64,000 bases of DNA, taken from NCBI GenBank assembly GCA_964057225.1, contig CAXKVF010000073.1:558001-622000 (forward strand), given 5' to 3'. Positions 17,001 through 40,700 of this stretch are shown here, one piece after another. A model generated the notes under the pieces. That model saw only the letters and a list, made by a program, of their open reading frames with translations. It did not search any database and had not been told where the DNA came from. A program made the translations under genes and the position numbers. Every line of letters begins with the position of its first letter. The stretch's first letter is position 1. The DNA is from Auanema rhodensis. Lineage: Eukaryota; Animalia; Nematoda.

Positions 17001-20000
17001 GAAGCGAGTTACATACCAAGTGCACATCACGTGTACATTTAATTAGCATAAATTAAAGTTCACGTAAATTTCAAAGTCATGGTTACCATGAACCAATATC
17101 AATAAAAATTTGTTTTTAGACTAATATCGACATGGGGAATCTAATTTTGAAAACCGCATCTCTTTATCTTTCACGTGAAGCGAGTTACATACCAAGTGCC
17201 CATCACGTGTACATTTAATTAGCATAAATTAAAGTTCACGTAAATTTCAAAGTCATGGTTACCATGCACCAATATCAATAAAAATTTGTTTTTAGACTAA
17301 TATGGACATGGGGAATCTAATTTTGAAAACCGCATCTCCTTATCTTTCACATGAAGCGAGTTACATACCAAGTGCACATCACGTGTACTATTAATTAGCA
17401 TAAATTAAAGTTCACGTAAATTTCAAAGTCATGGTTACCATGCACCAATATCAATAAAAATTTGTTTTTAGACTAATATGGACATGGGGAATCTAATTTT
17501 GAAAACCGCATCTCTTCATCTTTCACGTGAAGCGAGTTACATACCAAGTGCACATCACGTGTACATTTAATTAGCATAAATTAAAGTTCACGTAAATTTC
17601 AAAGTCATGGTTACCATGCACCAATATCAATAAAAATTTGTTTTTAGACTAATATGGACATGGGGAATCTAATTTTGAAAACCGCATCTCTTTATCTTTC
17701 ACGTGAAGCGAGTTACATACCAAGTGCACATCACGTGTACATTTAATTAGCATAAATTAAAGTTCACGTAAATTTCAAAGTCATGGTTACCATGCACCAA
17801 TATCAATAAAAATTTGTTTTTAGACTAATATGGACATGGGGAATCTAATTTTGAAAACCGCATCTCTTTATCTTTCACGTGAAGCGAGTTACATACCAAG
17901 TGCACATCACGTGTACATTTAATTAGCATAAATTAAAGTTCACGTAAATTTCAAAGTCATGGTTACCATGCACCAATATCAATAAAAATTTGTTTTTAGA
18001 CTAATATGGACATGGGGAATCTAATTTTGAAAACCGCATCTCTTCATCTTTCACGTGAAGCGAGTTACATACCAAGTGCACATCACGTGTACATTTAATT
18101 AGCATAAATTAAAGTTCACGTAAATTTCAAAGTCATGGTTACCATGAACCAATATCAATAAAAATTTGTTTTTAGACTAATATGGACATGGGGAATCTAA
18201 TTTTGAAAACCGCATCTCTTCATCTTTCACGTGAAGCGAGTTACATACCAAGTGCACATCACGTGTACATTTAATTAGCATAAATTAAAGTTCACGTAAA
18301 TTTCAAAGTCATGGTTACCATGCACCAATATCAATAAAAATTTGTTTTTAGACTAATATGGACATGGGGAATCTAATTTTGAAAACCGCATCTCTTCATC
18401 TTTCACGTGAAGCGAGTTACATACCAAGTGCACATCACGTGTACATTTAATTAGCATAAATTAAAGTTCACGTAAATTTCAAAGTCATGGTTACCATGCA
18501 CCAATATCAATAAAAATTTGTTTTTAGACTAATATGGACATGGGGAATCTAATTTTGAAAACCGCATCTCTCTATCTTTCACGTGAAGCGAGTTACATAC
18601 CAAGTGCACATCACGTGTACATTTAATTAGCATAAATTAAAGTTCACGTAAATTTCAAAGTCATGGTTACCATGCACCAATATCAATAAAAATTTGTTTT
18701 TAGACTAATATGGACATGGGGAATCTAATTTTGAAAACCGCATCTTTTTATCTTTCACGTGAAGCGAGTTACATACCAAGTGCACATCACGTGTACATTT
18801 AATTAGCATAAATTAAAGTTCACGTAAATTTCAAAGTCATGGTTACCATGCACCAATATCAATAAAAATTTGTTTTTAGACTAATATGGACATGGGGAAT
18901 CTAATTTTGAAAACCGCATCTCTTTATCTTTCACGTGAAGCGAGTTACATACCAAGTGCACATCACGTGTACATTTAATTAGCATAAATTAAAGTTCACG
19001 TAAATTTCAAAGTCATGGTTACCATGAACCAATATCAATAAAAATTTGTTTTTAGACTAATATGGACATGGGGAATCTAATTTTGAAAACCGCATCTCTT
19101 TATCTTTCACGTGAAGCGAGTTACATACCAAGTGCACATCACGTATACATTTAATTAGCATAAATTAAAGTTCACGTAAATTTCAAAGTCATGGTTACCA
19201 TGAACCAATATCAATAAAAATTTGTTTTTAGACTAATATGGACATGGGGAATCTAATTTTGAAAACCGCATCTCTTTATCTTTCACGTGAAGCGAGTTAC
19301 ATACCAAGTGCACATCACGTGTACATTTAATTAGCATAAATTAAAGTTCACGTAAATTTCAAAGTCATGGTTACCATGCACCAATATCGATAAAAATTTG
19401 TTTTTAGACTAATATGGACATGGGGAATCTAATTTTGAAAACCGCATCTCTTTATCTTTCACGTGAAGCGAGTTACATACCAAGTGCACATCACGTGTAC
19501 ATTTAATTAGCATAAATTAAAGTTCACGTAAATTTCAAAGTCATGGTTACCATGAACCAATATCAATAAAAATTTGTTTTTAGACTAATATGGACATGGG
19601 GAATCTAATTTTGAAAACCGCATCTCTTTATCTTTCACGTGAAGCGAGTTACATACCAAGTGCACATCACGTGTACATTTAATTAGCATAAATTAAAGTT
19701 CACGTAAATTTCAAAGTCATGGTTACCATGAACCAATATCAATAAAAATTTGTTTTTAGACTAATATGGACATGGGGAATCTAATTTTGAAAACCGCATC
19801 TCTTTATCTTTCACGTGAAGCGAGTTACATACCAAGTGCCCATCACGTGTACATTTAATTAGCATAAATTAAAGTTCACGTAAATTTCAAAGTCATGGTT
19901 ACCATGCACCAATATCAATAAAAATTTGTTTTTAGACTAATATGGACATGGGGAATCTAATTTTGAAAATCGCATCTCGTTATCTTTCACGTGAAGCGAG

Positions 20001-23000
20001 TTACATACCAAGTGCACATCACGTGTACATTTAATTAGCATAAATTAAATTTCACGTAAATTTCAAAGTCATGGTTACCATGCACCAATATCAATAAAAA
20101 TTTGTTTTTAGACTAGTATGGACATGGGGAATCTAATTTTGAAAACCGCATCTCTTTATCTTTCACGTGAAGCGAGTTACATACCAAGTGCACATCACGT
20201 GTACATTTAATTAGCATAAATTAAAGTTCACGTAAATTTCAAAGTCATGGTTACCATGCACCAATATCAATAAAAATTTGTTTTTAGACTAATATGGACA
20301 TGGGGAATCTAATTTTGAAAACCGCATCTCTTTATCTTTCACGTGAAGCGAGTTACATACCAAGTGCACATCACGTGTACATTTAATTAGCATAAATTAA
20401 AGTTCACGTAAATTTCAAAGTCATGGTTACCATGAACCAATATCAATAAAAATTTGTTTTTAGACTAATATGGACATGGGGAATCTAATTTTGAAAACCG
20501 TATCTCTTTATCTTTCACGTGAAGCGAGTTACATACCAAGTGCACATCACGTATACATTTAATTAGCATAAATTAAAGTTCACGTAAATTTCAAAGTCAT
20601 GGTTACCATGAACCAATATCAATAAAAATTTGTTTTTAGACTAATATGGACATGGGGAATCTAATTTTGAAAACCGCATCTCTTTATCTTTCACGTGAAG
20701 CGAGTTACATACCAAGTGCACATCACGTGTACATTTAATTAGCATAAATTAAAGTTCACGTAAATTTCAAAGTCATGGTTACCATGCACCAATATCGATA
20801 AAAATTTGTTTTTAGACTAATATGGACATGGGGAATCTAATTTTGAAAACCGCATCTCTTTATCTTTCACGTGAAGCGAGTTACATACCAAGTGCACATC
20901 ACGTGTACATTTAATTAGCATAAATTAAAGTTCACGTAAATTTCAAAGTCATGGTTACCATGCACCAATATCAATAAAAATTTGTTTTTAGACTAATATG
21001 GACATGGGGAATCTAATTTTGAAAACCGCATCTCCTTATCTTTCACGTGAAGCGAGTTACATACCAAGTGCACATCACGTGTACATTTAATTAGCATAAA
21101 TTAAAGTTCACGTAAATTTCAAAGTCATGGTTACCATGCACCAATATCAATAAAAATTTGTTTTTAGACTAATATGGACATGGGGAATCTAATTTTGAAA
21201 ATCGCATCTCGTTATCTTTCACGTGAAGCGAGTTACATACCAAGTGCACATCACGTGTACATTTAATTAGCATAAATTAAATTTCACGTAAATTTCAAAG
21301 TCATGGTTACCATGCACCAATATCAATAAAAATTTGTTTTTAGACTAGTATGGACATGGGGAATCTAATTTTGAAAACCGCATCTCTTTATCTTTCACGT
21401 GAAGCGAGTTACATACCAAGTGCACATCACGTGTACATTTAATTAGCATAAATTAAAGTTCACGTAAATTTCAAAGTCATGGTTACCATGCACCAATATC
21501 AATAAAAATTTGTTTTTAGACTAATATGGACATGGGGAATCTAATTTTGAAAACCGCATCTCTTTATCTTTCACGTGAAGCGAGTTACATACCAAGTGCA
21601 CATCACGTGTACATTTAATTAGCATAAATTAAAGTTCACGTAAATTTCAAAGTCATGGTTACCATGAACCAATATCAATAAAAATTTGTTTTTAGACTAA
21701 TATGGACATGGGGAATCTAATTTTGAAAACCGCATCTCTTTATCTTTCACGTGAAGCGAGTTACATACCAAGTGCACATCACGTATACATTTAATTAGCA
21801 TAAATTAAAGTTCACGTAAATTTCAAAGTCATGGTTACCATGAACCAATATCAATAAAAATTTGTTTTTAGACTAATATGGACATGGGGAATCTAATTTT
21901 GAAAACCGCATCTCTTTATCTTTCACGTGAAACGAGTTACATACCAAGTGCACATCACGTGTACATTTAATTAGCATAAATTAAAGTTCACGTAAATTTC
22001 AAAGTCATGGTTACCATGCACCAATATCGATAAAAATTTGTTTTTAGACTAATATGGACATGGGGAATCTAATTTTGAAAACCGCATCTCTTTATCTTTC
22101 ACGTGAAGCGAGTTACATACCAAGTGCACATCACGTGTACATTTAATTAGCATAAATTAAAGTTCACGTAAATTTCAAAGTCATGGTTACCATGCACCAA
22201 TATCAATAAAAATTTGTTTTTAGACTAATATGGACATGGGGAATCTAATTTTGAAAACCGCATCTCCTTATCTTTCACGTGAAGCGAGTTACATACCAAG
22301 TGCACATCACGTGTACATTTAATTAGCATAAATTAAAGTTCACGTAAATTTCAAAGTCATGGTTACCATGCACCAATATCAATAAAAATTTGTTTTTAGA
22401 CTAATATGGACATGGGGAATCTAATTTTGAAAACCGCATCTCTTCATCTTTCACGTGAAGCGAGTTACATACCAAGTGCACATCACGTGTACATTTAATT
22501 AGCATAAATTAAAGTTCACGTAAATTTCAAAGTCATGGTTACCATGAACCAATATCAATAAAAATTTGTTTTTAGACTAATATGGACATGGGGAATCTAA
22601 TTTTGAAAACCGCATCTCTTCATCTTTCACGTGAAGCGAGTTACATACCAAGTGCACATCACGTGTACATTTAATTAGCATAAATTAAAGTTCACGTAAA
22701 TTTCAAAGTCATGGTTACCATGCACCAATATCAATAAAAATTTGTTTTTAGACTAATATGGACATGGGGAATCTAATTTTGAAAACCGCATCTCTTCATC
22801 TTTCACGTGAAGCGAGTTACATACCAAGTGCACATCACGTGTACATTTAATTAGCATAAATTAAAGTTCACGTAAATTTCAAAGTCATGGTTACCATGCA
22901 CCAATATCAATAAAAATTTGTTTTTAGACTAATATGGACATGGGGAATCTAATTTTGAAAACCGCATCTCTCTATCTTTCACGTGAAGCGAGTTACATAC

Positions 23001-26000
23001 CAAGTGCACATCACGTGTACATTTAATTAGCATAAATTAAAGTTCACGTAAATTTCAAAGTCATGGTTACCATGCACCAATATCAATAAAAATTTGTTTT
23101 TAGACTAATATGGACATGGGGAATCTAATTTTGAAAACCGCATCTTTTTATCTTTCACGTGAAGCGAGTTACATACCAAGTGCACATCACGTGTACATTT
23201 AATTAGCATAAATTAAAGTTCACGTAAATTTCAAAGTCATGGTTACCATGCACCAATATCAATAAAAATTTGTTTTTAGACTAATATGGACATGGGGAAT
23301 CTAATTTTGAAAACCGCATCTCTTTATCTTTCACGTGAAGCGAGTTACATACCAAGTGCACATCACGTGTACATTTAATTAGCATAAATTAAAGTTCACG
23401 TAAATTTCAAAGTCATGGTTACCATGCACCAATATCAATAAAAATTTGTTTTTAGACTAATATGGACATGGGGAATCTAATTTTGAAAACCGCATCTTTT
23501 TATCTTTCACGTGAAGCGAGTTACATACCAAGTGCACATCACGTGTACATTTAATTAGCATAAATTAAAGTTCACGTAAATTTCAAAGTCATGGTTACCA
23601 TGAACCAATATCAATAAAAATTTGTTTTTAGACTAATATGGACATGGGGAATCTAATTTTGAAAACCGCATCTCTTTATCTTTCACGTGAAGCGAGTTAC
23701 ATACCAAGTGCACATCACGTGTACATTTAATTAGCATAAATTAAAGTTCACGTAAATTTCAAAGTCATGGTTACCATGCACCAATATCGATAAAAATTTG
23801 TTTTTAGACTAATATGGACATGGGGAATCTAATTTTGAAAACCGCATCTCTTTATCTTTCACGTGAAGCGAGTTACATACCAAGTGCACATCACGTATAC
23901 ATTTAATTAGCATAAATTAAAGTTCACGTAAATTTCAAAGTCATGGTTACCATGAACCAATATCAATAAAAATTTGTTTTTAGACTAATATGGACATGGG
24001 GAATCTAATTTTGAAAACCGCATCTCTTTATCTTTCACGTGAAGCGAGTTACATACCAAGTGCACATCACGTGTACATTTAATTAGCATAAATTAAAGTT
24101 CACGTAAATTTCAAAGTCATGGTTACCATGAACCAATATCAATAAAAATTTGTTTTTAGACTAATATGGACATGGGGAATCTAATTTTGAAAACCGCATC
24201 TCTTTATCTTTCACGTGAAGCGAGTTACATACCAAGTGCCCATCACGTGTACATTTAATTAGCATAAATTAAAGTTCACGTAAATTTCAAAGTCATGGTT
24301 ACCATGCACCAATATCAATAAAAATTTGTTTTTAGACTAATATGGACATGGGGAATCTAATTTTGAAAATCGCATCTCGTTATCTTTCACGTGAAGCGAG
24401 TTACATACCAAGTGCACATCACGTGTACATTTAATTAGCATAAATTAAATTTCACGTAAATTTCAAAGTCATGGTTACCATGCACCAATATCAATAAAAA
24501 TTTGTTTTTAGACTAGTATGGACATGGGGAATCTAATTTTGAAAACCGCATCTCTTTATCTTTCACGTGAAGCGAGTTACATACCAAGTGCACATCACGT
24601 GTACATTTAATTAGCATAAATTAAAGTTCACGTAAATTTCAAAGTCATGGTTACCATGCACCAATATCAATAAAAATTTGTTTTTAGACTAATATGGACA
24701 TGGGGAATCTAATTTTGAAAACCGCATCTCTTTATCTTTCACGTGAAGCGAGTTACATACCAAGTGCACATCACGTGTACATTTAATTAGCATAAATTAA
24801 AGTTCACGTAAATTTCAAAGTCATGGTTACCATGAACCAATATCAATAAAAATTTGTTTTTAGACTAATATGGACATGGGGAATCTAATTTTGAAAACCG
24901 CATCTCTTTATCTTTCACGTGAAGCGAGTTACATACCAAGTGCACATCACGTATACATTTAATTAGCATAAATTAAAGTTCACGTAAATTTCAAAGTCAT
25001 GGTTACCATGAACCAATATCAATAAAAATTTGTTTTTAGACTAATATGGACATGGGGAATCTAATTTTGAAAACCGCATCTCTTTATCTTTCACGTGAAG
25101 CGAGTTACATACCAAGTGCACATCACGTGTACATTTAATTAGCATAAATTAAAGTTCACGTAAATTTCAAAGTCATGGTTACCATGCACCAATATCGATA
25201 AAAATTTGTTTTTAGACTAATATGGACATGGGGAATCTAATTTTGAAAACCGCATCTCTTTATCTTTCACGTGAAGCGAGTTACATACCAAGTGCACATC
25301 ACGTGTACATTTAATTAGCATAAATTAAAGTTCACGTAAATTTCAAAGTCATGGTTACCATGAACCAATATCAATAAAAATTCGTTTTTAGACTAATATC
25401 GACATGGGGAATCTAATTTTGAAAACCGCATCTCTTTATCTTTCACGTGAAGCGAGTTACATACCAAGTGCCCATCACGTGTACATTTAATTAGCATAAA
25501 TTAAAGTTCACGTAAATTTCAAAGTCATGGTTACCATGCACCAATATCAATAAAAATTTGTTTTTAGACTAATATGGACATGGGGAATCTAATTTTGAAA
25601 ACCGCATCTCCTTATCTTTCACATGAAGCGAGTTACATACCAAGTGCACATCACGTGTACATTTAATTAGCATAAATTAAAGTTCACGTAAATTTCAAAG
25701 TCATGGTTACCATGCACCAATATCAATAAAAATTTGTTTTTAGACTAATATGGACATGGGGAATCTAATTTTGAAAACCGCATCTCTTCATCTTTCACGT
25801 GAAGCGAGTTACATACCAAGTGCACATCACGTGTACATTTAATTAGCATAAATTAAAGTTCACGTAAATTTCAAAGTCATGGTTACCATGCACCAATATC
25901 AATAAAAATTTGTTTTTAGACTAATATGGACATGGGGAATCTAATTTTGAAAACCGCATCTCTTTATCTTTCACGTGAAGCGAGTTACATACCAAGTGCA

Positions 26001-26905
26001 CATCACGTGTACATTTAATTAGCATAAATTAAAGTTCACGTAAATTTCAAAGTCATGGTTACCATGCACCAATGTCAATAAAAATTTGTTTTTAGACTAA
26101 TATGGACATGGGGAATCTAATTTTGAAAACCGCATCTCTTCATCTTTCACGTGAAGCGAGTTACATACCAAGTGCACATCACGTGTACATTTAATTAGCA
26201 TAAATTAAAGTTCACGTAAATTTCAAAGTCATGGTTACCATGCACCAATATCAATAAAAATTTGTTTTTAGACTAATATGGACATGGGGAATCTAATTTT
26301 GAAAACCGCATCTCTTCATCTTTCACGTGAAGCGAGTTACATACCAAGTGCACATCACGTGTACATTTAATTAGCATAAATTAAAGTTCACGTAAATTTC
26401 AAAGTCATGGTTACCATGCACCAATATCAATAAAAATTTGTTTTTAGACTAATATGGACATGGGGAATCTAATTTTGAAAACCGCATCTCTTTATCTTTC
26501 ACGTGAAGCGAGTTACATACCAAGTGCACATCACGTGTACATTTAATTAGCATAAATTAAAGTTCACGTAAATTTCAAAGTCATGGTTACCATGCACCAA
26601 TGTCAATAAAAATTTGTTTTTAGACTAATATGGACATGGGGAATCTAATTTTGAAAACCGCATCTCTTCATCTTTCACGTGAAGCGAGTTACATACCAAG
26701 TGCACATCACGTGTACATTTAATTAGCATAAATTAAAGTTCACGTAAATCTCAAAGTCATGGTTACCATGCACCAATATCAATAAAAATTTGTTTTTAGA
26801 CTAATATCGACATGGGGAATCTAATTTTGAAAACCGCATCTCTTTATCTTTCACGTGAAGCGAGTTACATACCAAGTGCACATCACGTGTACATTTAATT
26901 AGCAT

Positions 26906-26911
26906 AAATTA
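26906..26911 (+). other. Target-site duplication, left copy (AAATTA; right copy 31714-31719)
   Basis: Monomer positions 156-161 are present on both sides of the insertion. Exact length is ambiguous because TTA also matches the tail and A31714 also matches the satellite tag. Confidence 0.8.
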
Positions 26912-26933
26912 TTTATTTATTTATTTATTTATT
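26909..26933 (-). repeat. LINE 3' terminal microsatellite tail (TAAA)n, ~6 units
   Basis: Plus strand TTATTTATTTATTTATTTATTTATT directly abuts the satellite. Short-repeat tails instead of poly(A) are typical of CR1/L2 elements. Confidence 0.9.
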
Positions 26934-27429
26934 CGTTCTATATCACAGATTCTTGATAATCAAAAGCTTATTGTGAACGTAGGTATACTGCGAAAAAGCA
27001 TCTTACAATATGAACTGGGAAAGTAAATTAAAAATTAGAATCAGAAAAATTAGAAAAAGGATGAAAGTGGTAAATAGTTGTATAATAGAATAGACTAGAA
27101 TACAAGAAATATAACATAACGATATTGAAGCATATGAGATTCTATTACTATTTCTCAGCAGTTTGTGAAAACAAAAACAGATTATGTTCAGCAAAGTTTG
27201 ATGAACTGACTCTTTAAATATAGCTGATCAGGTGCGGTGGAACTCAGAAATGAGTCAAGCCCGTTCTAATAGCAAAGAGAAAAACTGTTACTCATTGCTA
27301 CGACTGATGTTGATACAGTATAGATGACAGTAGCAGTCTGGCAGAAAAAAAAAAAAAGTAAGAAAAGAACCTTGTATGTTAATTGAAAAGAAAACGATGA
27401 TACAGATTAAAAAAAAAAAAAAGTAATAG
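26934..27429 (-). other. LINE 3' UTR (~500 bp) with two U-runs and a candidate terminal stem-loop
   Basis: Lies between the ORF2 stop and the tail. A-runs on the plus strand at ~27345-27357 and ~27409-27422, each followed by GTAA. Nested inverted repeats at 26943-26976. Confidence 0.75.
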
Positions 27430-30246
27430 TCACGATAAAATATGAGACAAGATATGTTTCCGGAAAGAATGTTTTGTACGAAGGCTGACTATGGCTTCAG
27501 GAAGAGAGTTCCATAGATTTACAGTTCTGTATTCAATTCCATTCCTTGTTTCTGTCCTCCATAGAGTAGGATGAGCTAGATTCCATTGGTGTCTGCGCAG
27601 AGAATTCAGATTCTTGATAATGAAAAAAGATTGTGAGTTTCCTGTGGCTTCTATTGTTATATGAGCAAAATAGAACAATAGATCAGAAAGAACCCTCCTA
27701 GTTATCAGATCTTCAGTTTCAAGATAAGATAGCTGATCTTTGTAAGTTAGGTCAAGACCGGCTCGGCCAAAGATTGCTTTAAAAAACTTTTTCTGAACTT
27801 TTTCTATTCGTTGTTTGCCTGCAATGTTCTGTGGTGACCAGATAACTGATCCATATTCAAGTATGGGTCGGACGTAACAGCTGAAAAGTTTGAACAATAA
27901 TTTAGGACATTTAGAGTAGAAACAACGGAGAATAGTTCGGCATTTGACGGCCGCAATACTACAAATTGAATTAATGTGTTTTTCGAAAGACAAGTTATTT
28001 TCCGTCCAAATACCCAGATCTTTGTATGCAGATACTATAGAGAGAGATGAATCGCCAAAAGTGAAATTAGTAATGTTGTGATAATTAGATGATTTGTTAG
28101 AGACAATTATTACTTTAGATTTTTCGGTGTTGACTTTCATTTTGTTATCATGACACCATTTGTAAAGAGAATTAAGAGCATTTTGAAGGCTCTGAGGGTT
28201 ACAACTATGAAGTTTTAGATCATCAGCATATAAAATGGGATGAACATCGGATGTGAATAAGGAAGTTATGTCGTTTATGTAAAACAGAAACAGTAGAGGG
28301 CCAAGAACCGTTCCTTGAGGAACCCCACATGTAAGACTAACAGGGTCGGATAGACTTTTGTTGATGAGTACAGAGTAAGAACGGTTTTGGATAAAAGATC
28401 CAAGAAAATTAAGAAGAGACCCACGAATTCCAATAGATTTCAATTTTGCAAAGAGAATGGAGTGATCAATGAGATCGAATGCTTTTGAGAAATCAATAAA
28501 CGCAACAAAAACTGTATTTTTATCATCAATAAGTGATCTCCATTTGATATGGCTGGAAACAAGGGCTGTTACAGTGCTGCGTTTAGAAAGAAAAGCGTGC
28601 TGAACATTGGAAATGCTGCCCGAGGATACACCAAAATGAAGAAGGGGAGATCGAATAAGTCGTTCAAAGACTTTAGATAAACTTGGGGTTAGTGAGATTG
28701 GACGGTAATTAGAAGGATCAGAAGGGTTGCCTTTCTTGAAAACCGGACGTATCCAAGCTGTTTTCCAGTCAGGAGGACAAATAGAAGAAACAAGGAGGTT
28801 ATGAAAAATAAACGAGAGAGGATTGCAGAGGGTGCCTGCACATTGTTTGAGAAAGTAGTACGGAATTCCATCCGGAGAAGTAGATGCGCGCGAAGGAAGG
28901 TGAGAAAGAATGTTGAAAACCTTTTCAGGGGAGATGTCGATGAAGTCAATGACTGATGGAGAGTAATTGAGAAGATGAGAGTAAGTGGAAGATGAAGAGG
29001 ATTTGACAGCAAAGACGGAGGAAAAAATTTCAGCTTTGTCTACGTCAGAGAAAACCAAAGTTTCGTTGATTTGTAGAGTAGGGATATCAGAAGAGTCTTT
29101 ACCAAGACGTTCGCGACAGAATTGAAAAAATGCTTTTGAATTGTTGGTAGAAGCTATGTTGTTTTCATCAATGGCAGATTTGAGTTTGATGAGTTTATCT
29201 AAGGTGACAGATAGCTTTTTGCGAAGAAGCTCATCCTGAGCGAAAAGAGAGTTGCTTAACCGGTTAACACGATTGTTAAGTTTCTGAATGTCACGATCAA
29301 GTTTTTTTCTTTTCTTTGCCTTTTTGAATGGGACACAGCTCTGAATTATTGATTGGACAATTGCAATAAACTTAGAATAGGAAGTTATAGCGTTTAGACC
29401 ACATAATTCAGTAGCGAAGTCAATGCCAGCTAAAAGGCTATTTATTTTACCATAATCGGCCGAGAAAAAGTTACGACTAGAAAAAGAGGAAGAGAGAGAA
29501 GAGGGCCTGGAAGTAGCAACTTTGTTGATTTGAGCAAATGTGAGAGGATCCAAAATAATGTTGAAGAAAACCGAGTAATGATCAGATTGGCCAAGAGGGC
29601 TATTGCGAGAAATGTTCTCTACACAGTGAACACTGTTGGTGATAATGTAATCCAAGATGTTTTTACCTCTGGTTGGGAAAGTAACTAATTGACTGGATGA
29701 AGACTGTTGAAGAAAGTTGAGAATAGATGAAGTAGAGGGGGAACTGCTTGACGAATGGATGAGATCCCAGTCAATGTGAGGGAAATTAAGATCGCCTGTT
29801 AAGAAAAACCTGCGGTTCGAGATAAGAGTTTGAAATTCGGTTAGAAAAAAAAGAAAGTCAGAGTGCTGAGATAATGGAGAACGATAGCAGATTGAGAAAA
29901 CGACGTCAGAAGGTATAATGAGAACATTTAGGTATTGAACAGTTGATTGAGAAGGAGAGCATGAGAGAAGACGACTATTAATGTGTTTTTTAATATAGAG
30001 GAGGACTCCTCCTCCTCGAGAAGTTGATCTGTCATCACGGAAAATGCAGTAAGAATCTCTCAAAGGAAGGGAGCTAGAGTTGAAATCAGGAAACAGCCAG
30101 GTCTCAGATATAGCAATAATGTCTGAACTGAGAGTCGAATGAACAATTGGTATTAAGTGTAATTTATTGACAATAGATCGTGCGTTATAACAAGAGACTG
30201 TAATTTTACTACATGCAGCAGTAGAGATTGTTGATTGGAAATTAAC
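27430..30246 (-). CDS. LINE ORF2: APE-type endonuclease + reverse transcriptase (no AUG start; probably expressed as a +1 frameshift fusion to ORF1)
   Basis: APE motifs: YNARS, ISETW, RGGGV, GDLN, LDYI, SDH. RT motifs: PVFKKG, NYRPISL, FIDFSKAFD, GVPQGTVLGPLLF, YADD (28219-28230), KDLG. The frame is open from 30390 to the stop at 27430; the track's 'M' at 30309 is TTG. The 5' boundary given (30246) is the first codon after the proposed slip site. Confidence 0.93.
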   Translation of the reverse strand, partial: VNFQSTISTAACSKITVSCYNARSIVNKLHLIPIVHSTLSSDIIAISETWLFPDFNSSSLPLRDSYCIFRDDRSTSRGGGVLLYIKKHINSRLLSCSPSQSTVQYLNVLIIPSDVVFSICYRSPLSQHSDFLFFLTEFQTLISNRRFFLTGDLNFPHIDWDLIHSSSSSPSTSSILNFLQQSSSSQLVTFPTRGKNILDYIITNSVHCVENISRNSPLGQSDHYSVFFNIILDPLTFAQINKVATSRPSSLSSSFSSRNFFSADYGKINSLLAGIDFATELCGLNAITSYSKFIAIVQSIIQSCVPFKKAKKRKKLDRDIQKLNNRVNRLSNSLFAQDELLRKKLSVTLDKLIKLKSAIDENNIASTNNSKAFFQFCRERLGKDSSDIPTLQINETLVFSDVDKAEIFSSVFAVKSSSSSTYSHLLNYSPSVIDFIDISPEKVFNILSHLPSRASTSPDGIPYYFLKQCAGTLCNPLSFIFHNLLVSSICPPDWKTAWIRPVFKKGNPSDPSNYRPISLTPSLSKVFERLIRSPLLHFGVSSGSISNVQHAFLSKRSTVTALVSSHIKWRSLIDDKNTVFVAFIDFSKAFDLIDHSILFAKLKSIGIRGSLLNFLGSFIQNRSYSVLINKSLSDPVSLTCGVPQGTVLGPLLFLFYINDITSLFTSDVHPILYADDLKLHSCNPQSLQNALNSLYKWCHDNKMKVNTEKSKVIIVSNKSSNYHNITNFTFGDSSLSIVSAYKDLGIWTENNLSFEKHINSICSIAAVKCRTILRCFYSKCPKLLFKLFSCYVRPILEYGSVIWSPQNIAGKQRIEKVQKKFFKAIFGRAGLDLTYKDQLSYLETEDLITRRVLSDLLFYFAHITIEATGNSQSFFIIKNLNSLRRHQWNLAHPTLWRTETRNGIEYRTVNLWNSLPEAIVSLRTKHSFRKHILSHILS

Positions 30247-30253
30247 GAAAGGA
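30242..30253 (-). other. Putative +1 programmed ribosomal frameshift site UCC_UUU_CGU_UAA at the ORF1/ORF2 junction
   Basis: Minus strand reads ACA TCC TTT CGT TAA (T-S-F-R-stop) in the ORF1 frame and CAT CCT TTC GTT AAT (H-P-F-V-N) in the ORF2 (+1) frame. The motif and its phase match the influenza PA-X slip site. Confidence 0.7.
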
Positions 30254-31321
30254 TGTTTGGCTGGGCAGATTGGACGGGGAATTAGGCAAAGTAGATGTAT
30301 TTCTAACAATGTTAGCAGTAGGATCTGGAACAGATTTAGCTCGGCGAGAAGGGTTTTTTCTTCTTCTTTGGCTGCTACATCTTTCTTTGTTTATTGGAGC
30401 GGGCTGTCCCTTAGTTATAGGCCGGCCTCTTCTACCAGATTTAGACGGGGGACTAGAATCAAGGTCATGCGTAAAAATAGGCATGTCAGACATTGGAGCA
30501 ATGCATGAATTGGTAGTTTCAGAGTCCATGCCTGTAGGGGAAACAACATATTTAACACTGGATGTGTCTTTTGGGGCAGTGCCTGTGTTGGTGAGTCTAC
30601 GAGGTACTTTTATAAGCTTTAGATCTCGAACAAGAAAAATGAATTCAGTGTCGTCAGAGTTTTTGCTTTTGGCTTCGTCACGAAGCCGTTTTTCTAGTTC
30701 CACCTCAAAGAATAGATAATCACGACGAACGAATGTTTTGGATAGTGAGTTGGAAATTTTAGGTTTGTGAGATCTTATAGCTGCTATAACAGTATCTCGA
30801 ATACTGACCGAAGGACACGTTATGATAAGTGGACCAGGGGACCCTGATTTGAGGGTGCAGCGAGTAACGAATATGTGATTGGAATTGAGTAAAGAAATAA
30901 GACTAGTATCACTGCAGCTATCAAAAACAAGTTTGAGAAGAGAACGGGCATCGCTAGGCAGATCAGGTGACGTGACTGGAACCCGGAACCAGAGAGCTCT
31001 CAAGGAACGGTGAGCAAATTTAGATTCTTCTAACCTAATTTTATTCACTTCAGTTATAACAGTATTTGAACACGGAAGTGTAGGCAATATGCAAGCACTT
31101 TCGTTACCCATGAAAGCAGTGAACTTATTTTCTAAAGCGTTGAGTCTTGAGTTGAACTCAGTTTCAATTACTTTCAAACGAGATTCATGCAATGCGATAC
31201 AGTTTTTGATACTATGCAGGTCGCTTTTGATTTCTAGAGAAAAACTTGAGAAAGTGGAATGAAGAGATTCCGTGAGAGATTTCAGAGAAGCAGTAAGAAA
31301 CTCGGGAGTGACTGTAGACAT
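30242..31321 (-). CDS. LINE ORF1 (359 aa; N-terminal coiled coil, putative RNA-binding core, basic disordered C-terminal tail)
   Basis: First ATG downstream of the 18-bp repeats is at 31321 (MSTVTPEF); the track's upstream 99 codons are low-complexity UTR. Heptad-like LKSLTESL...SRLNALENKF, followed by segments resembling CR1/L2 ORF1 (RALWFRVP, PGPLII, FVRRD...EKRLRDEAKSKN...FLVRD). Domain calls are by eye. Confidence 0.8.
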   Translation of the reverse strand: MSTVTPEFLTASLKSLTESLHSTFSSFSLEIKSDLHSIKNCIALHESRLKVIETEFNSRLNALENKFTAFMGNESACILPTLPCSNTVITEVNKIRLEESKFAHRSLRALWFRVPVTSPDLPSDARSLLKLVFDSCSDTSLISLLNSNHIFVTRCTLKSGSPGPLIITCPSVSIRDTVIAAIRSHKPKISNSLSKTFVRRDYLFFEVELEKRLRDEAKSKNSDDTEFIFLVRDLKLIKVPRRLTNTGTAPKDTSSVKYVVSPTGMDSETTNSCIAPMSDMPIFTHDLDSSPPSKSGRRGRPITKGQPAPINKERCSSQRRRKNPSRRAKSVPDPTANIVRNTSTLPNSPSNLPSQTSFR

Positions 31322-31324
31322 AAT

Positions 31325-31535
31325 GACAGAGCGTAAAAAGTAAGGAAAGAAAAAATAAAGATAAAGGAAATGATAAAAAGAAGAAAAATAAAAAGAAGAA
31401 AGAAAGGAAAAAAGAAAATATAGAGAGGATATGAAAAAGAAAAAAAAAGAGAAGAGAGAGAAAAATGAAAGAAAAAAAGAAAAAGGAAATAAATGAATAC
31501 GGAAAAAAAGAAAAAGAAAAAAAGAAGAAAAAAGT
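31325..31535 (-). other. Long pyrimidine (U/C)-rich tract in the LINE 5' UTR
   Basis: Plus strand is almost entirely A/G over ~200 bp. On the sense strand there is no AG dinucleotide and no ATG until the ORF1 start. Confidence 0.85.
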
Positions 31536-31621
31536 ACCTTACTAAAACCAATCCGGCGTAAAACAAGAGCAGACTTCGGTTGCGGCGGGGTTGGAGCAGT
31601 AGGGAGACAACCGACCACGAG

Positions 31622-31693
31622 GAGTCGAAAATGTAGTGTGAGTCGAAAATGTAGTGTGAGTCGAAAATGTAGTGTGAGTCGAAAATGTAGTGT
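31622..31693 (-). repeat. Four perfect 18-bp tandem repeats at the LINE 5' end (sense ACACTACATTTTCGACTC)
   Basis: GAGTCGAAAATGTAGTGT at 31622, 31640, 31658 and 31676; no evident similarity to the 176-bp monomer. Confidence 0.97.
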
Positions 31694-31694
31694 T

Positions 31695-31713
31695 TTTCAA
31701 AGTCATGGTTACC
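31695..31713 (+). other. Out-of-register 19-20-bp satellite fragment between the LINE 5' end and the TSD
   Basis: TTTCAAAGTCATGGTTACC(A) equals monomer positions 175-176 plus 1-17/18, and is repeated 38 bp later at 31733-31752 in its normal context. Confidence 0.92.
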
Positions 31714-31719
31714 AAATTA
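31714..31719 (+). other. Target-site duplication, right copy (AAATTA)
   Basis: ACC-AAATTA-AAGTTCACG at the element's 5' junction. Confidence 0.8.
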
Positions 31720-34700
31720 AAGTTCACGTAAATTTCAAAGTCATGGTTACCATGAACCAATATCAATAAAAATTTGTTTTTAGACTAATATGGACATGGG
31801 GAATCTAATTTTGAAAACCGCATCTCTTTATCTTTCACGTGAAGCGAGTTACATACCAAGTGCACATCACGTGTACATTTAATTAGCATAAATTAAAGTT
31901 CACGTAAATTTCAAAGTCATGGTTACCATGCACCAATATCAATAAAAATTTGTTTTTAGACTAATATGGACATGGGAAATCTAATTTTGAAAACCGCATC
32001 TCTTTATCTTTCACGTGAAGCGAGTTACATACCAAGTGCACATCACGTGTACATTTAATTAGCATAAATTAAAGTTCACGTAAATTTCAAAGTCATGGTT
32101 ACCATGAACCAATATCAATAAAAATTTGTTTTTAGACTAATATGGACATGGGGAATCTAATTTTGAAAACCGCATCTCTTTATCTTTCACGTGAAGCGAG
32201 TTACATACCAAGTGCACATCACGTGTACATTTAATTAGCATAAATTAAAGTTCACGTAAATTTCAAAGTCATGGTTACCATGCACCAATGTCAATAAAAA
32301 TTTGTTTTTAGACTAATATGGACATGGGGAATCTAATTTTGCAAACCGCATCTCTTCATCTTTCACGTGAAGCGAGTTACATACCAAGTGCACATCACGT
32401 GTACATTTAATTAGCATAAATTAAAGTTCACGTAAATTTCAAAGTCATGGTTACCATGCACCAATATCAATAAAAATTTGTTTTTAGACTAATATGGACA
32501 TGGGGAATCTAATTTTGAAAACCGCATCTCTTTATCTTTCACGTGAAGCGAGTTACATACCAAGTGCACATCACGTGTACATTTAATTAGCATAAATTAA
32601 AGTTCACGTAAATTTCAAAGTCATGGTTACCATGAACCAATATCAATAAAAATTTGTTTTTAGACTAATATGGACATGGGGAATCTAATTTTGAAAACCG
32701 CATCTCTTTATCTTTCACGTGAAGCGAGTTACATACCAAGTGCACATCACGTGTACATTTAATTAGCATAAATTAAAGTTCACGTAAATTTCAAAGTCAT
32801 GGTTACCATGCACCAATATCAATAAAAATTTGTTTTTAGACTAATATGGACATGGGGAATCTAATTTTGAAAACCGCATCTCTTTATCTTTCACGTGAAG
32901 CGAGTTACATACCAAGTGCACATCACGTGTACATTTAATTAGCATAAATTAAAGTTCACGTAAATTTCAAAGTCATGGTTACCATGCACCAATATCAATA
33001 AAAATTTGTTTTTAGACTAATATGGACATGGGGAATCTAATTTTGCAAACCGCATCTCTTCATCTTTCACGTGAAGCGAGTTACATACCAAGTGCACATC
33101 ACGTGTACATTTAATTAGCATAAATTAAAGTTCACGTAAATTTCAAAGTCATGGTTACCATGAACCAATATCAATAAAAATTTGTTTTTAGACTAATATG
33201 GACATGGGGAATCTAATTTTGAAAACCGCATCTCTTTATCTTTCATGTGAAGCGAGTTACATACCAAGTGCACATCACGTGTACATTTAATTAGCATAAA
33301 TTAAAGTTCACGTAAATTTCAAAGTCATGGTTACCATGAACCAATATCAATAAAAATTTGTTTTTAGACTAATATGGACATGGGGAATCTAATTTTGAAA
33401 ACCGCATCTCTTTATCTTTCACGTGAAGCGAGTTACATACCAAGTGCACATCACGTGTACATTTAATTAGCATAAATTAAAGTTCACGTAAATTTCAAAG
33501 TCATGGTTACCATGCACCAATGTCAATAAAAATTTGTTTTTAGACTAATATGGACATGGGGAATCTAATTTTGAAAACCGCATCTCTTTATCTTTCACGT
33601 GAAGCGAGTTACATACCAAGTGCACATCACGTGTACATTTAATTAGCATAAATTAAAGTTCACGTAAATTTCAAAGTCATGGTTACCATGAACCAATATC
33701 AATAAAAATTTGTTTTTAGACTAATATGGACATGGGGAATCTAATTTTGAGAACCGCATCTCTTTATCTTTCACGTGAAGCGAGTTACATACCAAGTGCA
33801 CATCACGTGTACATTTAATTAGCATAAATTAAAGTTCACGTAAATTTCAAAGTCATGGTTACCATGCACCAATATCAATAAAAATTTGTTTTTAGACTAA
33901 TATGGACATGGGGAATCTAATTTTGAAAACCGCATCTCTTTATCTTTCACGTGAAGCGAGTTACATACCAAGTGCACATCACGTGTACATTTAATTAGCA
34001 TAAATTAAAGTTCACGTAAATTTCAAAGTCATGGTTACCATGAACCAATATCGATAAAAATTTGTTTTTAGACTGATATGGACATGGGGAATCTAATTTT
34101 GAAAACCGCATCTCTTTATCTTTCACGTGAAGCGAGTTACATACCAAGTGCACATCACGTGTACATTTAATTAGCATAAATTAAAGTTCACGTAAATTTC
34201 AAAGTCATGGTTACCATGCACCAATATCAATAAAAATTTGTTTTTAGACTAATATGGACATGGGGAATCTAATTTTCAAAACCGCATCTCTTTATCTTTC
34301 ACGTGAAGCGAGTTACATACCAAGTGCACATCACGTGTACATTTAATTAGCATAAATTAAAGTTCACGTAAATTTCAAAGTCATGGTTACCATGCACCAA
34401 TATCAATAAAAATTTGTTTTTAGACTAATATGTACATGGGGAATCTAATTTTGAAAACCGCATCTCTTTATCTTTCACGTGAAGCGAGTTACATACCAAG
34501 TGCACTTCACGTGTACATTTAATTAGCATAAATTAAAGTTCACGTAAATTTCAAAGTCATGGTTACCATGCACCAATGTCAATAAAAATTTGTTTTTAGA
34601 CTAATATGGACATGGGGAATCTAATTTTGCAAACCGCATCTCTTCATCTTTCACGTGAAGCGAGTTACATACCAAGTGCACATCACGTGTACATTTAATT

Positions 34701-37700
34701 AGCATAAATTAAAGTTCACGTAAATTTCAAAGTCATGGTTACCATGCACCAATATCAATAAAAATTTGTTTTTAGACTAATATGGACATGGGGAATCTAA
34801 TTTTGAAAACCTCATCTCTTTATCTTTCACGTGAAGCGAGTTACATACCAAGTGCACATCACGTGTACATTTAATTAGCATAAATTAAAGTTCACGTAAA
34901 TTTCAAAGTCATGGTTACCATGAACCAATATCAATAAAAATTTGTTTTTAGACTAATATGGACATGGGGAATCTAATTTTGAAAACCGCATCTCTTTATC
35001 TTTCACGTGAAGCGAGTTACATACCAAGTGCACATCACGTGTACATTTAATTAGCATAAATTAAAGTTCACGTAACTTTCAAAGTCATGGTTACCATGCA
35101 CCAATATCAATAAAAATTTGTTTTTAGACTAATATGGACATGGGGAATCTAATTTTGAAAACCGCATCTCTTTATCTTTCACGTGAAGCGAGTTACATAC
35201 TAAGTGCACATCACGTTTACATTTAATTAGCATAAATTAAAGTTCACGTAAATTTCAAAGTCATGGTTACCATGCACCAATATCAATAAAAATTTGTTTT
35301 TAGACTAATATGGACATGGGGAATCTAATTTTGAAAACCGCATCTCTTTATCTTTCACGTGAAGCGAGTTACATACCAAGTGCACATCACGTGTACATTT
35401 AATTAGCATAAATTAAAGTTCACGTAAATTTCAAAGTCATGGTTACCATGAACCAATATCAATAAAAATTTGTTTTTAGACTAATATGGACATGGGGAAT
35501 CTGATTTTGAAAACCGCATCTCTTTATCTTTCACGTGAAGCGAGTTACATACCAAGTGCACATCACGTGTACATTTAATTAGCATAAATTAAAGTTCACG
35601 TAAATTTCAAAGTCATGGTTACCATGCACCAATATCAATAAAAATTTGTTTTTAAACTAATATGGACATGGGGAATCCAATTTTGAAAACCGCATCTCTT
35701 TATCTTTCACGTGAAGCGAGTTACATACCAAGTGCACATCACGTGTACATTTAATTAGCATAAATTAAAGTTCACGTAAATTTCAAAGTCATGGTTACCA
35801 TGCACCAATATCAATAAAAATTTGTTTTTAGACTAATATGGACATGGGGAATCTAATTTTGAAAACCGCATCTCTTTATCTTTCACGTGAAGCGAGTTAC
35901 ATACCAAGTGCACATCACGTGTACATTTAATTAGCATAAATTAAAGTTCACGTAAATTTCAAAGTCATGGTTACCATGAACCAATATCAATAAAAATTTG
36001 TTTTTAGACTAATATGGACATGGGGAATCTAATTTTGAAAACCGCATCTCTTTATCTTTCACGTGAAGCGAGTTACATACCAAGTGCACATCACGTGTAC
36101 ATTTAATTAGCATAAATTAAAGTTCACGTAAATTTCAAAGTCATGGTTACCATGCACCAATATCAATAAAAATTTGTTTTTAGACTAATATGGACATGGG
36201 GAATCTAATTTTGAAAACCGCATCTCTTTATCTTTCACGTGAAGCGAGTTACATACCAAGTGCACATCACGTGTACATTTAATTAGCATAAATTAAAGTT
36301 CACGTAAATTTCAAAGTCATGGTTACCATGCACCAATATCAATAAAAATTTGTTTTTAGACTAATATGGACATGGGGAATCTAATTTTGAAAACCGCATC
36401 TCTTTATCTTTCACGTGAAGCGAGTTACATACCAAGTGCACATCACGTGTACATTTAATTAGCATAAATTAAAGTTCACGTAAATTTCAAAGTCATGGTT
36501 ACCATGAACCAATATCAATAAAAATTTGTTTTTAGACTAATATGGACATGGGGAATCTAATTTTGAAAACCGCATCTCTTTATCTTTCACGTGAAGCGAG
36601 TTACATACCAAGTGCACATCACGTATACATTTAATTAGCATAAATTAAAGTTCACGTAAATATCAAAGTCATGGTTACCATGCACCAATATCAATAAAAA
36701 TTTGTTTTTAGACTAATATGGACATGGGGAATCTAATTTTGAAAACCGCATTTCTTTATCTTTCACGTGAAGCGAGTTACATACCAAGTGCACATCACGT
36801 GTACATTTAATTAGCATAAATTAAAGTTCACGTAAATTTCAAAGTCATGGTTACCAAGCACCAATATCAATAAAAATTTGTTTTTAGACTAATATGGACA
36901 TGGGGAATCTAATTTTGAAAACCGCATCTCTTTATCTTTCACGTGAAGCGAGTTACATACCAAGTGCACATCACGTGTACATTTAATTAGCATAAATTAA
37001 AGTTCACGTAAATTTCAAAGTCATGGTTACCATGCACCAATATCAATAAAAATTTGTTTTTAGACTAATATGGACATGGGGAATCTAATTTTGAAAACCG
37101 CATCTCTTTATCTTTCACGTGAAGCGAGTTACAAACCAAGTGCACATCACGTGTACATTTAATTAGCATAAATTAAAGTTCACGTAAATTTCAAAGTCAT
37201 GGTTACCATGAACCAATATCAATAAAAATTTGTTTTTAGACTAATATGGACATGGGGAATCTAATTTTGAAAACCGCATCTCTTTATCTTTCACGTGAAG
37301 CGAGTTACATACCAAGTGCACATCACGTATACATTTAATTAGCATAAATTAAAGTTCACGTAAATTTCAAAGTCATGGTTACCATGAACCAATATCAATA
37401 AAAATTTGTTTTTAGACTAATATGGACATGGGGAATCTAATTTTGAAAACCGCATCTCTTTATCTTTCACGTGAAGCGAGTTACATACCAAGTGCACATC
37501 ACGTGTACATTTAATTAGCATAAATTAAAGTTCACGTAAATTTCAAAGTCATGGTTACCATGCACCAATATCAATAAACATTTGTTTTTAGACTAATATG
37601 GACATGGGGAATCTAATTTTGAAAACCGCATCTCTTTATCTTTCACGTGAAGCGAGTTACATACCAAGTGCACATCACGTGTACATTTAATTAGCATAAA

Positions 37701-40700
37701 TTAAAGTTCACGTAAATTTCAAAGTCATGGTTACCATGCACCAATATCAATAAAAATTTGTTTTTAGACTAATATGGACATGGGGAATCTAATTTTGAAA
37801 ACCGCATCTCTTCATCTTTCACGTGAAGCGAGTTACATACCAAGTGCACATCACGTGTACATTTAATTAGCATAAATTAAAGTTCACGTAAATTTCAAAG
37901 TCATGGTTACCATGCACCAATATCAATAAAAATTTGTTTTTAGACTAATATGGACATGGGGAATCTAATTTTGAAAACCGCATCTCTTTATCTTTCACGT
38001 GAAGCGAGTTACATACCAAGTGCACAGCACGTGTACATTTAATTAGCATAAATTAAAGTTCACGTAAATTTCAAAGTCATGGTTACCATGAACCAATATC
38101 AATAAAAATTTGTTTTTAGACTAATATGGACATGGAGAATCTAATTTTGAAAACCGCATCTCTTTATCTTTCACGTGAAGCGAGTTACATACCAAGTGCA
38201 CATCACGTGTACATTTAATTAGCATAAATTAAAGTTCACGTAAATTTCAAAGTCATGGTTACCATGAACCAATATCAATAAAAATTTGTTTTTAGACTAA
38301 TATGGACATGGGGAATCTAATTTTGAAAACCGCATCTCTTCATCTTTCACGTGAAGCGAGTTACATACCAAGTGCACATCACGTGTACATTTAATTAGCA
38401 TAAATTAAAGTTCACGTAAATTTCAAAGTCTTGGTTACCATGCACCAATATCAATAAAAATTTGTTTTTAGACTAATATGGACATGGGGAATCTAATTTT
38501 GAAAACCGCATCTCTTTATCTTTCACGTGAAGCGAGTTACATACCAAGTGCACATCACGTGTACATTTAATTAGCATAAATTAAAGTTCACGTAAATTTC
38601 AAAGTCATGGTTACCATGAACCAATATCAATAAAAATTTGTTTTTAGACTAATATGGACATGGGGAATCTAATTTTGAAAACCGCATTTCTTTATCTTTC
38701 ACGTGAAGCGAGTTACATACCAAGTGCACATCACGTGTACATTTAATTAGCATAAATTAAAGTTCACGTAAATTTCAAAGTCATGGTTACCATGAACAAA
38801 TATCAATAAAAATTTGTTTTTAGACTAATATGGACATGGGGAATCTAATTTTGAAAACCGCATCTCTTCATCTTTCACGTGAAGCGAGTTACATACCAAG
38901 TGCACATCACGTGTACATTTAATTAGCATAAATTAAAGTTCACGTAAATTTCAAAGTCATGGTTACCATGCACCAATATCAATAAAAATTTGTTTTTAGA
39001 CTAATATGGACATGGGGAATCTAATTTTGAAAACCGCATCTCTTTATCTTTCACGTGAAGCGAGTTACATACCAAGTGCACATCACGTGTACATTTAATT
39101 AGCATAAATTAAAGTTCACGTAAATTTCAAAGTCATGGTTACCATGCACCAATATCAATAAAAATTTGTTTTTAGACTAATATGGACATGGGGAATCTAA
39201 TTTTGAAAACCGCATCTCTTTATCTTTCACGTGAAGCGAGTTACATACCAAGTGCACATCACGTGTACATTTAATTAGCATAAATTAAAGTTCACGTAAA
39301 TTTCAAAGTCATGGTTACCATGCACCAATATCAATAAAAATTCGTTTTTAGACTAATATGGACATGGGGAATCTAATTTTGAAAACCGCATCTCTTTATC
39401 TTTCACGTGAAGCGAGTTACATACCAAGTGCACATCACGTGTACATTTAATTAGCATAAATTAAAGTTCACGTAAATTTCAAAGTCATGGTTACCATGCA
39501 CCAATATCAATAAAAATTTGTTTTTAGACTAATATGGACATGGGGAATCTAATTTTGAAAACCGCATCTCTTTATCTTTCACGTGAAGCGAGTTACATAC
39601 CAAGTGCACATCACGTGTACATTTAATTAGCATAAATTAAAGTTCACGTAAATTTCAAAGTCATGGTTACCATGAACCAATATCAATAAAAATTTGTTTT
39701 TAGACTAATATGGACATGGAGAATCTAATTTTGAAAACCGCATCTCTTTATCTTTCACGTGAAGCGAGTTACATACCAAGTGCACATCACGTGTACATTT
39801 AATTAGCATAAATTAAAGTTCACGTAAATTTCAAAGTCATGGTTACCATGAACCAATATCAATAAAAATTCGTTTTTAGACTAATATGGACATGGGGAAT
39901 CTAATTCTGAAAACCGCATCTCTTCATCTTTCACGTGAAGCGAGTTACATACCAAGTGCACATCACGTGTACATTTAATTAGCATAAATTAAAGTTCACG
40001 TAAATTTCAAAGTCATGGTTACCATGCACCAATATCAATAAAAATTTGTTTTTAGACTAATATGGACATGGGGAATCTAATTTTGAAAACCGCATCTCTT
40101 TATCTTTCACGTGAAGCGAGTTACATACCAAGTGCACATCACGTGTACATTTAATTAGCATAAATTAAAGTTCACGTAAATTTCAAAGTCATGGTTACCA
40201 TGAACCAATATCAATAAAAATTTGTTTTTAGACTAATATGGACATGGGGAATCTAATTTTGAAAACCGCATCTCTTTATCTTTCACGTGAAGCGAGTTAC
40301 ATACCAAGTGCACATCACGTGTACATTTAATTAGCATAAATTAAAGTTCACGTAAATTTCAAAGTCATGGTTACCATGAACCAATATCAATAAAAATTTG
40401 TTTTTAGACTAATATGGACATGGGGAATCTAATTTTGAAAACCGCATCTCTTTATCTTTCACGTGAAGCGAGTTACATACCAAGTGCACATCACGTGTAC
40501 ATTTAATTAGCATAAATTAAAGTTCACGTAAATTTCAAAGTCATGGTTACCATGCACCAATATCAATAAAAATTTGTTTTTAGACTAATATGGACATGGG
40601 GAATCTAATTTTGAAAACCGCATCTCTTTATCTTTCACGTGAAGCGAGTTACATACCAAGTGCACAGCACGTGTACATTTAATTAGCATAAATTAAAGTT

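Follow-up and report, generated by a model that had tools for sequence, protein, structure and literature searches.

The element and its reading frames

The stretch of DNA analyzed here (the window) comprises 64,000 nucleotides of Auanema rhodensis contig CAXKVF010000073.1, positions 558,001 to 622,000 of the forward strand, and consists of an array of a 176-bp satellite unit broken by a single 4.8-kb long interspersed nuclear element (LINE), which runs on the minus strand from ~31695 to 26909 (Table 1). The element has two long open reading frames (ORFs) and the hallmarks of an APE-type LINE: an ORF2 with both an APE-type endonuclease and a reverse transcriptase (RT), an upstream ORF1 that resembles the L1 ORF1 protein (ORF1p), and a simple-repeat 3' tail. 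ORF2 matches PF03372, PF14529 and PF00078 above the Pfam cut-offs, and its relatives of solved structure are the L1 and R2 proteins (best, L1 ORF2p, E 3.9e-14); the Pfam domain search found no protease domain in the element.

ORF1 has no Pfam match. Its AlphaFold2 model, built from a 26-sequence alignment with a mean predicted local distance difference test (pLDDT) score of 72, shows a coiled coil followed by RRM-like and C-terminal domains (residues ~6-240) and a tail (residues 247-359) that lies almost entirely below pLDDT 50 and, judging from the model, is probably disordered. The top 10 Foldseek matches of this model are all human L1 ORF1p (best E 8.4e-5), and on that fold match the protein is predicted to be the RNA-binding ORF1 of an APE-type LINE. 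Assignment of the element to the CR1 group is plausible; we base the label on what we take to be C-terminal motifs of that group, on the repeat tail and on a domain search that gave no RNase H match. The esterase ORF1 of vertebrate canonical CR1 elements is not present, ORF1 being L1-ORF1p-like, but as the type of ORF1 is reported to differ among CR1-group elements (PMC13343379), the missing esterase rules out the vertebrate canonical type only.

The ORF1-ORF2 junction

An initial annotation of this locus had proposed that ORF2 is expressed by a +1 ribosomal frameshift of the influenza PA-X type, directly before the ORF1 stop codon. Its description of the junction is correct. In the ORF1 frame, minus-strand positions 30253-30242 read TCC TTT CGT TAA, so that ORF1 mRNA ends UCC UUU CGU UAA; ORF2 lies in the +1 frame, open from 30390 to 27430 with a 149-nt overlap, and contains no AUG before or within the endonuclease or the RT core, its only methionine being codon 751, near the end of the RVT_1 match (ORF2 residues 553-762). 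A slip of the P-site tRNA from UUU to UUC would continue at GTT (30246), reading Val-Asn-Phe, and would enter ORF2 14 residues ahead of the first endonuclease strand, giving a predicted fusion of 358 + 938 = 1296 amino acids, close to what had been anticipated.

The PA-X site was mapped by mass spectrometry, and the reports describe a tRNA-Phe that re-pairs from UUU to UUC in the P site with CGU waiting in the A site, stimulation by UCC in the E site and abolition of the shift by UUC_AGA (PMC3498833). Shift efficiency is given as ~1-2%, with no need for RNA structure, and an in-frame UCC_UUU_CGU is counted in 12 of 37,257 human coding sequences (PMC5644247). Related sites are reported for ASXL1, PLEKHM2 (UCC_UUU_CGG) and the amalgaviruses (UUU_CGN) (PMC5644247, 10.1101/2024.08.30.610563, PMC5052127). 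The LINE junction has each element of this signal: a UUU read in frame, then C as the first letter of a CGN codon (TTT CGT at 30250-30245), UCC in the E-site position (30253-30251), and a +1 frame that is reached without a stop and runs for 938 codons, including the endonuclease and RT. On these sequence features it belongs to the PA-X class, and TCCTTTCG occurs only once in the 64-kb window.

Calculated from the element's own codon frequencies, the chance of TCC_TTT_CGT is 1.2e-5 for one given position and 5.5e-4 for the overlap as a whole, and that of the weaker TTT_CGN is 1.2e-3 and 0.054, respectively; these are per-element figures, whereas many windows and motifs were screened. The length of the overlap was dropped as evidence for frameshifting: it spans 50 codons, and the same frame of ORF1 contains two longer stop-free gaps (60 and 65 codons), so it is uninformative. 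No significant stimulatory RNA structure was found in 60- and 100-nt folds 3' of the stop (z = -0.4 and -0.5), and base pairing between the junction and the 3' end of the element, which ranked 82 among 273 control windows, was rejected.

The lack of a start codon requires a more guarded interpretation. Methionine is scarce throughout ORF2, with 1 in 937 codons (27430-30243, minus strand) against 7.5 expected (P ~0.005), and there is no GTG codon; the absence of an AUG at the front is therefore partly a general property of the frame. Among 46 homologues the methionine content ranges from 0.13% to 2.6%. The scarcity may stem from low G at third positions or from avoidance of internal starts. An ORF2 that is intact but AUG-less nonetheless needs some route to be started.

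Copies of the junction in public sequencing runs

The element is present, wholly or partly, in 11 public runs from three studies, and 8 of 14 listed runs were compared. Contigs cross the junction with zero indels or substitutions in five of them (X1, X2, X3 and X7, 4/4 runs; X9, 1/4 runs), whereas those of X10, X11 and X12 do not reach it, X10 and X11 offering only short, near-identical pieces. At least three haplotypes are represented at the junction, counting the window, with X3 carrying its own set of differences; one covering run may be the source of the window itself. As the same junction recurs in five runs from three studies, it is neither an assembly slip nor a private indel, and neither a one-base indel nor a form with the two ORFs fused in frame, either of which would have undermined the original proposal, appears in the contigs.

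The copies differ from the window at 8/2089 letters (X1) and 11/3411 letters (X3), ~0.3-0.4%. About 11 differences separate the window copy from the dominant contigs between 28108 and 30712; on the sense strand most have T in the window where the contigs have C, and most are non-synonymous. Contig pieces less than 90% alike were also seen at 27526-27572, 28453-28517, 28838-28885 and 29761-29801 (X1-X3, X7, X9); judged by sequence, they show that several related LINE families are present in the same samples.

Phe-Arg at the ORF1 ends of the closest relatives

UUU_CGN encodes Phe-Arg (FR). Ten matches to ORF1 came from a full HMMER search, whereas a word-based search gave none. The best three (E 2e-25 to 8e-21), all from Auanema sp. 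JU1783, end SFRK, TFRK and SFR. They are 30-33% identical to the window ORF1 and 39-48% identical among themselves, and their tails, taken from the end of the last conserved strand (21-26% identical to that of the window), are less alike than their cores (31-32%). FR is the sole dipeptide common to all four proteins within the last 10 residues; when the last 60 residues were shuffled, any dipeptide was common to the last four residues in 22 of 200,000 trials, a control that counts the four as independent although they are kin. In a 23-row tree, from which P0077 was excluded and in which three fused predictions were trimmed to ORF1, the four form one branch with support 100/100.

The terminal FR of the relatives fits a conserved UUU_CGN slip site, as judged from protein sequence. 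A Ser or Thr in front of the FR would agree with the CC_UUU_C core described in PLEKHM2, though also with a Ser/Thr-rich tail. As the tail has a pLDDT below 50, the model offers no structural reason for Phe-Arg. The junction is genuine and intact, with an exact PA-X site and conservation at the protein level over ~70% divergence.

In all, 28 distinct ORF1 homologues were found, 21 with an organism name, which we take to be nematodes in every case; the feature seems to be limited to a single clade of nematode LINEs. Other ends were observed among the more distant ORF1s. P0053/P0060 ends Ser-Thr-Phe-stop, which by its residues is compatible with a UUU-stop +1 site, and 11 of 17 (among P0057-P0085, two near-duplicate pairs included) end in Ala or Leu, compatible at the same level with overlapping stop-starts of the AUGA type.

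Pattern searches for nucleotide sequences of further family members returned nothing related. A pattern built on an ORF1 motif picked out 18 sequences (1 viral, 9 from metagenomes and 8 from genomes), 0/18 with a tblastn match to the nine query proteins; a junction-plus-endonuclease pattern gave 19 viral matches, 0 of them related; and phage and plasmid records gave no match.

Other features of the element

Table 1. Features of the LINE and its surroundings in the window (coordinates on the forward strand of the 64,000-nucleotide window).
Feature	Position	Strand	Details
Satellite array, 176-bp unit	1..26908	n/a	beside the 3' end of the element
3' untranslated region (UTR)	26909..27429	minus	ends in tetranucleotide tail, ATAA repeats 26909-26933
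ORF2 open frame	27430..30390	minus	986 codons, +1 to ORF1, sole Met at 28140
RT domain, RVT_1 match	28105..28734	minus	E 2.9e-33
APE-type endonuclease domain	29578..30138	minus	Pfam PF03372, E 2.4e-11; first strand starts slightly upstream, 30204
ORF2 predicted translated part	from 30246	minus	938 aa
ORF1	30242..31321	minus	ATG at 31321, 359 aa, last residues SFR
ORF1 stop codon TAA	30242..30244	minus	immediately 3' of candidate slip site
Candidate +1 slip site UCC_UUU_CGU (E, P, A codons)	30245..30253	minus	from sequence; identical to PA-X site
5' UTR	31322..31695	minus	four 18-nt tandem units (31622-31693) and U-rich tract (~31335-31535)
Satellite array, 176-bp unit	31696..64000	n/a	beside the 5' end of the element

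No target-site duplication is apparent at 31696-31714 and 26900-26912. At the 5' end of the element 19 nt of satellite sequence are out of register, and the 3' tail shows microhomology with the satellite. In the 5' UTR (31335-31550, minus strand), a 200-nt U-rich tract is preceded by TTTTAG, which is acceptor-like, and by the donor-like AG|GTA; from their sequence, a UTR intron or a trans-splice site is possible.

Within ORF1, a basic R-R-x-S-[LV]-P-like motif in the tail (30320-30365, minus strand) is common to the three Auanema ORF1s. The motif is reminiscent of a phosphorylation or 14-3-3 site. In several runs, contig depth over 30811-31047 is raised several-fold and the contigs have loose ends to either side, and this piece of ORF1 seems to lie also within another, more abundant repeat; contig depth was not taken as a measure of copy number.

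Proposed mechanism of ORF2 expression

We consider it likely that a +1 ribosomal frameshift at UCC_UUU_CGU yields the ORF2 enzyme as a 1296-residue ORF1-ORF2 fusion, a reading drawn from the sequence of the junction and its resemblance to PA-X. By analogy with PA-X, the majority of ribosomes would decode CGU, terminate at UAA and release ORF1p, while a minority (1-2% in the viral context) would pause, allow the tRNA-Phe on UUU to re-pair to UUC, and go on to translate ORF2. With the slip at the extreme end of ORF1, the fusion would retain the whole of ORF1p and use its disordered tail as a linker, and the fused polymerase could, in the manner of Gag-Pol, ride into the ORF1p particle. The proposal of a slip at UUU_C leading to the fusion came through the refutation tests that were run, with FR present in 3/3 of the closest relatives, and is kept here as a prediction. 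The accompanying suggestion that the adjacent stop codon aids the slip is not supported: at the moment of slippage the stop lies one codon beyond the A site, re-pairing from CGU to GUU is impossible, and a Lys separates the Arg from the stop in 2/3 relatives, all of which makes the stop an improbable driver of the shift. The position of the site beside the stop is better explained, we infer, by inclusion of the whole ORF1p in the fusion.

Several observations weigh against this frameshift. With copies only ~0.3-0.4% apart, an unchanged 12-nt site tells nothing about selection, and the conservation of FR is at the protein level only, as TTT CGN and TTC AGA both encode it; FR could itself be a protein motif, given that the tail has another motif in common, the R-R-x-S-[LV]-P-like one. 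The three relatives are gene predictions from one Auanema isolate and of common ancestry, not three independent events, and scans of metagenome, genome and viral contigs, the last also with single proteins and with alignments, brought up no relative. None of the 17 more distant ORF1s ends in FR (21 ends were compared, 4 of them FR or FRK, a count made without four fused models, proteins that are partial or cut short, and several near-duplicates), and the branch of the window ORF1 is long (1.79), with a long-branch warning from the tree tool. The overlap also holds four other +1 re-pairing sites (30388, 30358, 30337 and 30265). The fusion would place a 360-residue N-terminal extension on the predicted endonuclease and RT. 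Finally, human L1 is said, from work by Alisch in 2006, to tolerate loss of its ORF2 AUG.

This last point leads to the strongest competing explanation, in which ribosomes terminate at UAA and reinitiate at a non-AUG codon in the ORF2 frame (AUC at 30228 or AUU at 30204), in the manner of human L1, with FR as a protein motif or a termination signal. The route is described for SART1 and L1 (PMC5972666, PMC2881922), calicivirus reinitiation is reported to withstand changes of the start codon, the two near-cognate codons lie 14 and 38 nt 3' of the stop, and the ORF1 tail shows some protein-level conservation. It would, however, leave unexplained why all nine letters match a proven +1 site and do so in the sole frame that reaches ORF2. 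Moreover, an ORF2 AUG at or shortly after the ORF1 stop, as termination-reinitiation would use, is absent: stop and start do not overlap, no in-frame AUG precedes 28140, and the first AUG 3' of the stop, at 30214, belongs to the ORF1 frame, where a stop codon follows immediately. We therefore regard reinitiation as unlikely, if still deserving consideration.

Splicing could instead link ORF1 to the ORF2 frame, with TGTTCCAG (next base 30324, phase 0) and AATTACAG (30197, phase 1) as examples of acceptor-like sequences. ORF1 has four donor-like sites, three acceptor-like sites each differ at two positions from what we take to be the nematode consensus, and database gene models of relatives from Pristionchus (P0029, P0054, P0056 and P0063), which are predictions, fuse ORF1 to the endonuclease. 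An exact consensus acceptor was not found near the junction, and splicing leaves the terminal FR unexplained. LINE proteins preferentially copy their own mRNA, and a spliced ORF2 mRNA should thus leave spliced genomic copies; no such joint near the junction was listed in the five covering DNA runs, in which contigs drop rare variants. Splicing is very improbable on this balance.

Equally improbable is a change of frame elsewhere in the overlap, such as at AGA_AAA_AAC (30358), through slippage on its A run either by the ribosome (+1 or -2) or by the polymerase. The four additional re-pairing sites would permit it, and the three relatives preserve an Arg-Lys at the corresponding alignment position, but the product would lose the common tail motif and gain ~35 mostly hydrophobic residues ahead of the endonuclease. 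A canonical -1 shift, with an X_XXY_YYZ heptamer leading into ORF2, does not apply: ORF2 is in the +1 frame, and the heptamer at 30358 meets a stop within six codons.

Least credible, and largely refuted, is that the family is a frameshifted mutant of a one-ORF or AUG-start element or the junction an assembly error, for although the mostly non-synonymous differences between the window copy and the dominant contigs, and the near-identity of all sampled copies, possibly descended from one mutant, would suit such an origin, the recurrence of the junction across runs, the intactness of both ORFs and the same terminal motif in three relatives at 30-33% identity all oppose it.

For the frameshift itself, a wider evolutionary reading seems to us somewhat better supported than not: that a clade of nematode LINEs lost its independent ORF2 start and independently evolved a PA-X signal, so that every RT it makes is a complete ORF1p-ORF2p fusion, in Gag-Pol style but protease-less, with sister lineages that have other junctions (one the Ser-Thr-Phe-stop form, a possible shifty stop) providing a natural series for the switching of ORF2 expression.

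Significance and comparison with known systems

The route by which ORF2 is translated has been worked out for very few LINEs, chiefly L1 and SART1, both of which use reinitiation. A defined +1 slip site in an intact LINE would, if true, constitute a third route, and would mean that a LINE polymerase can function fused to ORF1p, an arrangement that simply sets the ratio of the two proteins and loads the enzyme onto its own RNA. It would also bring animal transposons into the small UUU_CGN class, beside RNA viruses and two vertebrate genes, and would supply an annotation rule for nematode LINEs with a startless ORF2, which gene predictors may join through invented introns. No report of a UUU_CGN (PA-X-type) site in a LINE was found in the literature searched, which stopped short of Repbase notes, older C. 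elegans LINE papers and most subscription papers, and the main text of a 2026 survey of the vertebrate CR1 group makes no mention of frameshifting, start codons or translation (PMC13343379).

Human L1 and SART1 resemble the present element in their bicistronic RNA and in the reliance of ORF2 on ORF1 translation (PMC5972666, PMC2881922), and the fold of human L1 ORF1p resembles the ORF1 model. They differ in reinitiating at or near an ORF2 AUG, which the present element lacks, to make a separate ORF2p. The initial annotation had set the element apart from characterized LINEs on this ground; the contrast was overstated, as frameshifting has been stated or proposed for other LINEs. In the Dictyostelium APE-type LINEs TRE5-A and TRE3-A a frameshift is stated to be necessary for ORF2, but it is in the -1 direction, with another signal and in another clade (PMC5911963). 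Non-LTR (long terminal repeat) groups 1 and 2 of Paramecium have an ORF2 with APE and RT in the +1 frame, for which a +1 shift or reinitiation has been proposed; they form a separate ciliate clade with a zinc-finger ORF1, several of their ORF2s have a Met at or near the start, none of 10 ORF1 ends examined (of 38 elements) is Phe-Arg, and the available text names no slip motif (PMC5405496). The yeast elements Ty1 and Ty3 likewise shift +1 near the end of the structural gene to fuse the structural protein to the polymerase, but they are LTR elements with another signal, and a protease cuts the fusion (PMC5911963).

The closest likeness is to PA-X and the related sites, in the identical nine letters, placed in frame, leading into a +1 ORF and with no clear stimulatory structure; the amalgaviruses add a product that fuses ORF1 to the polymerase, as is predicted for the LINE. 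The viral sites lie near the 5' ends of long overlaps, whereas the candidate LINE site lies one codon before the zero-frame stop and belongs to a nuclear non-LTR retrotransposon.

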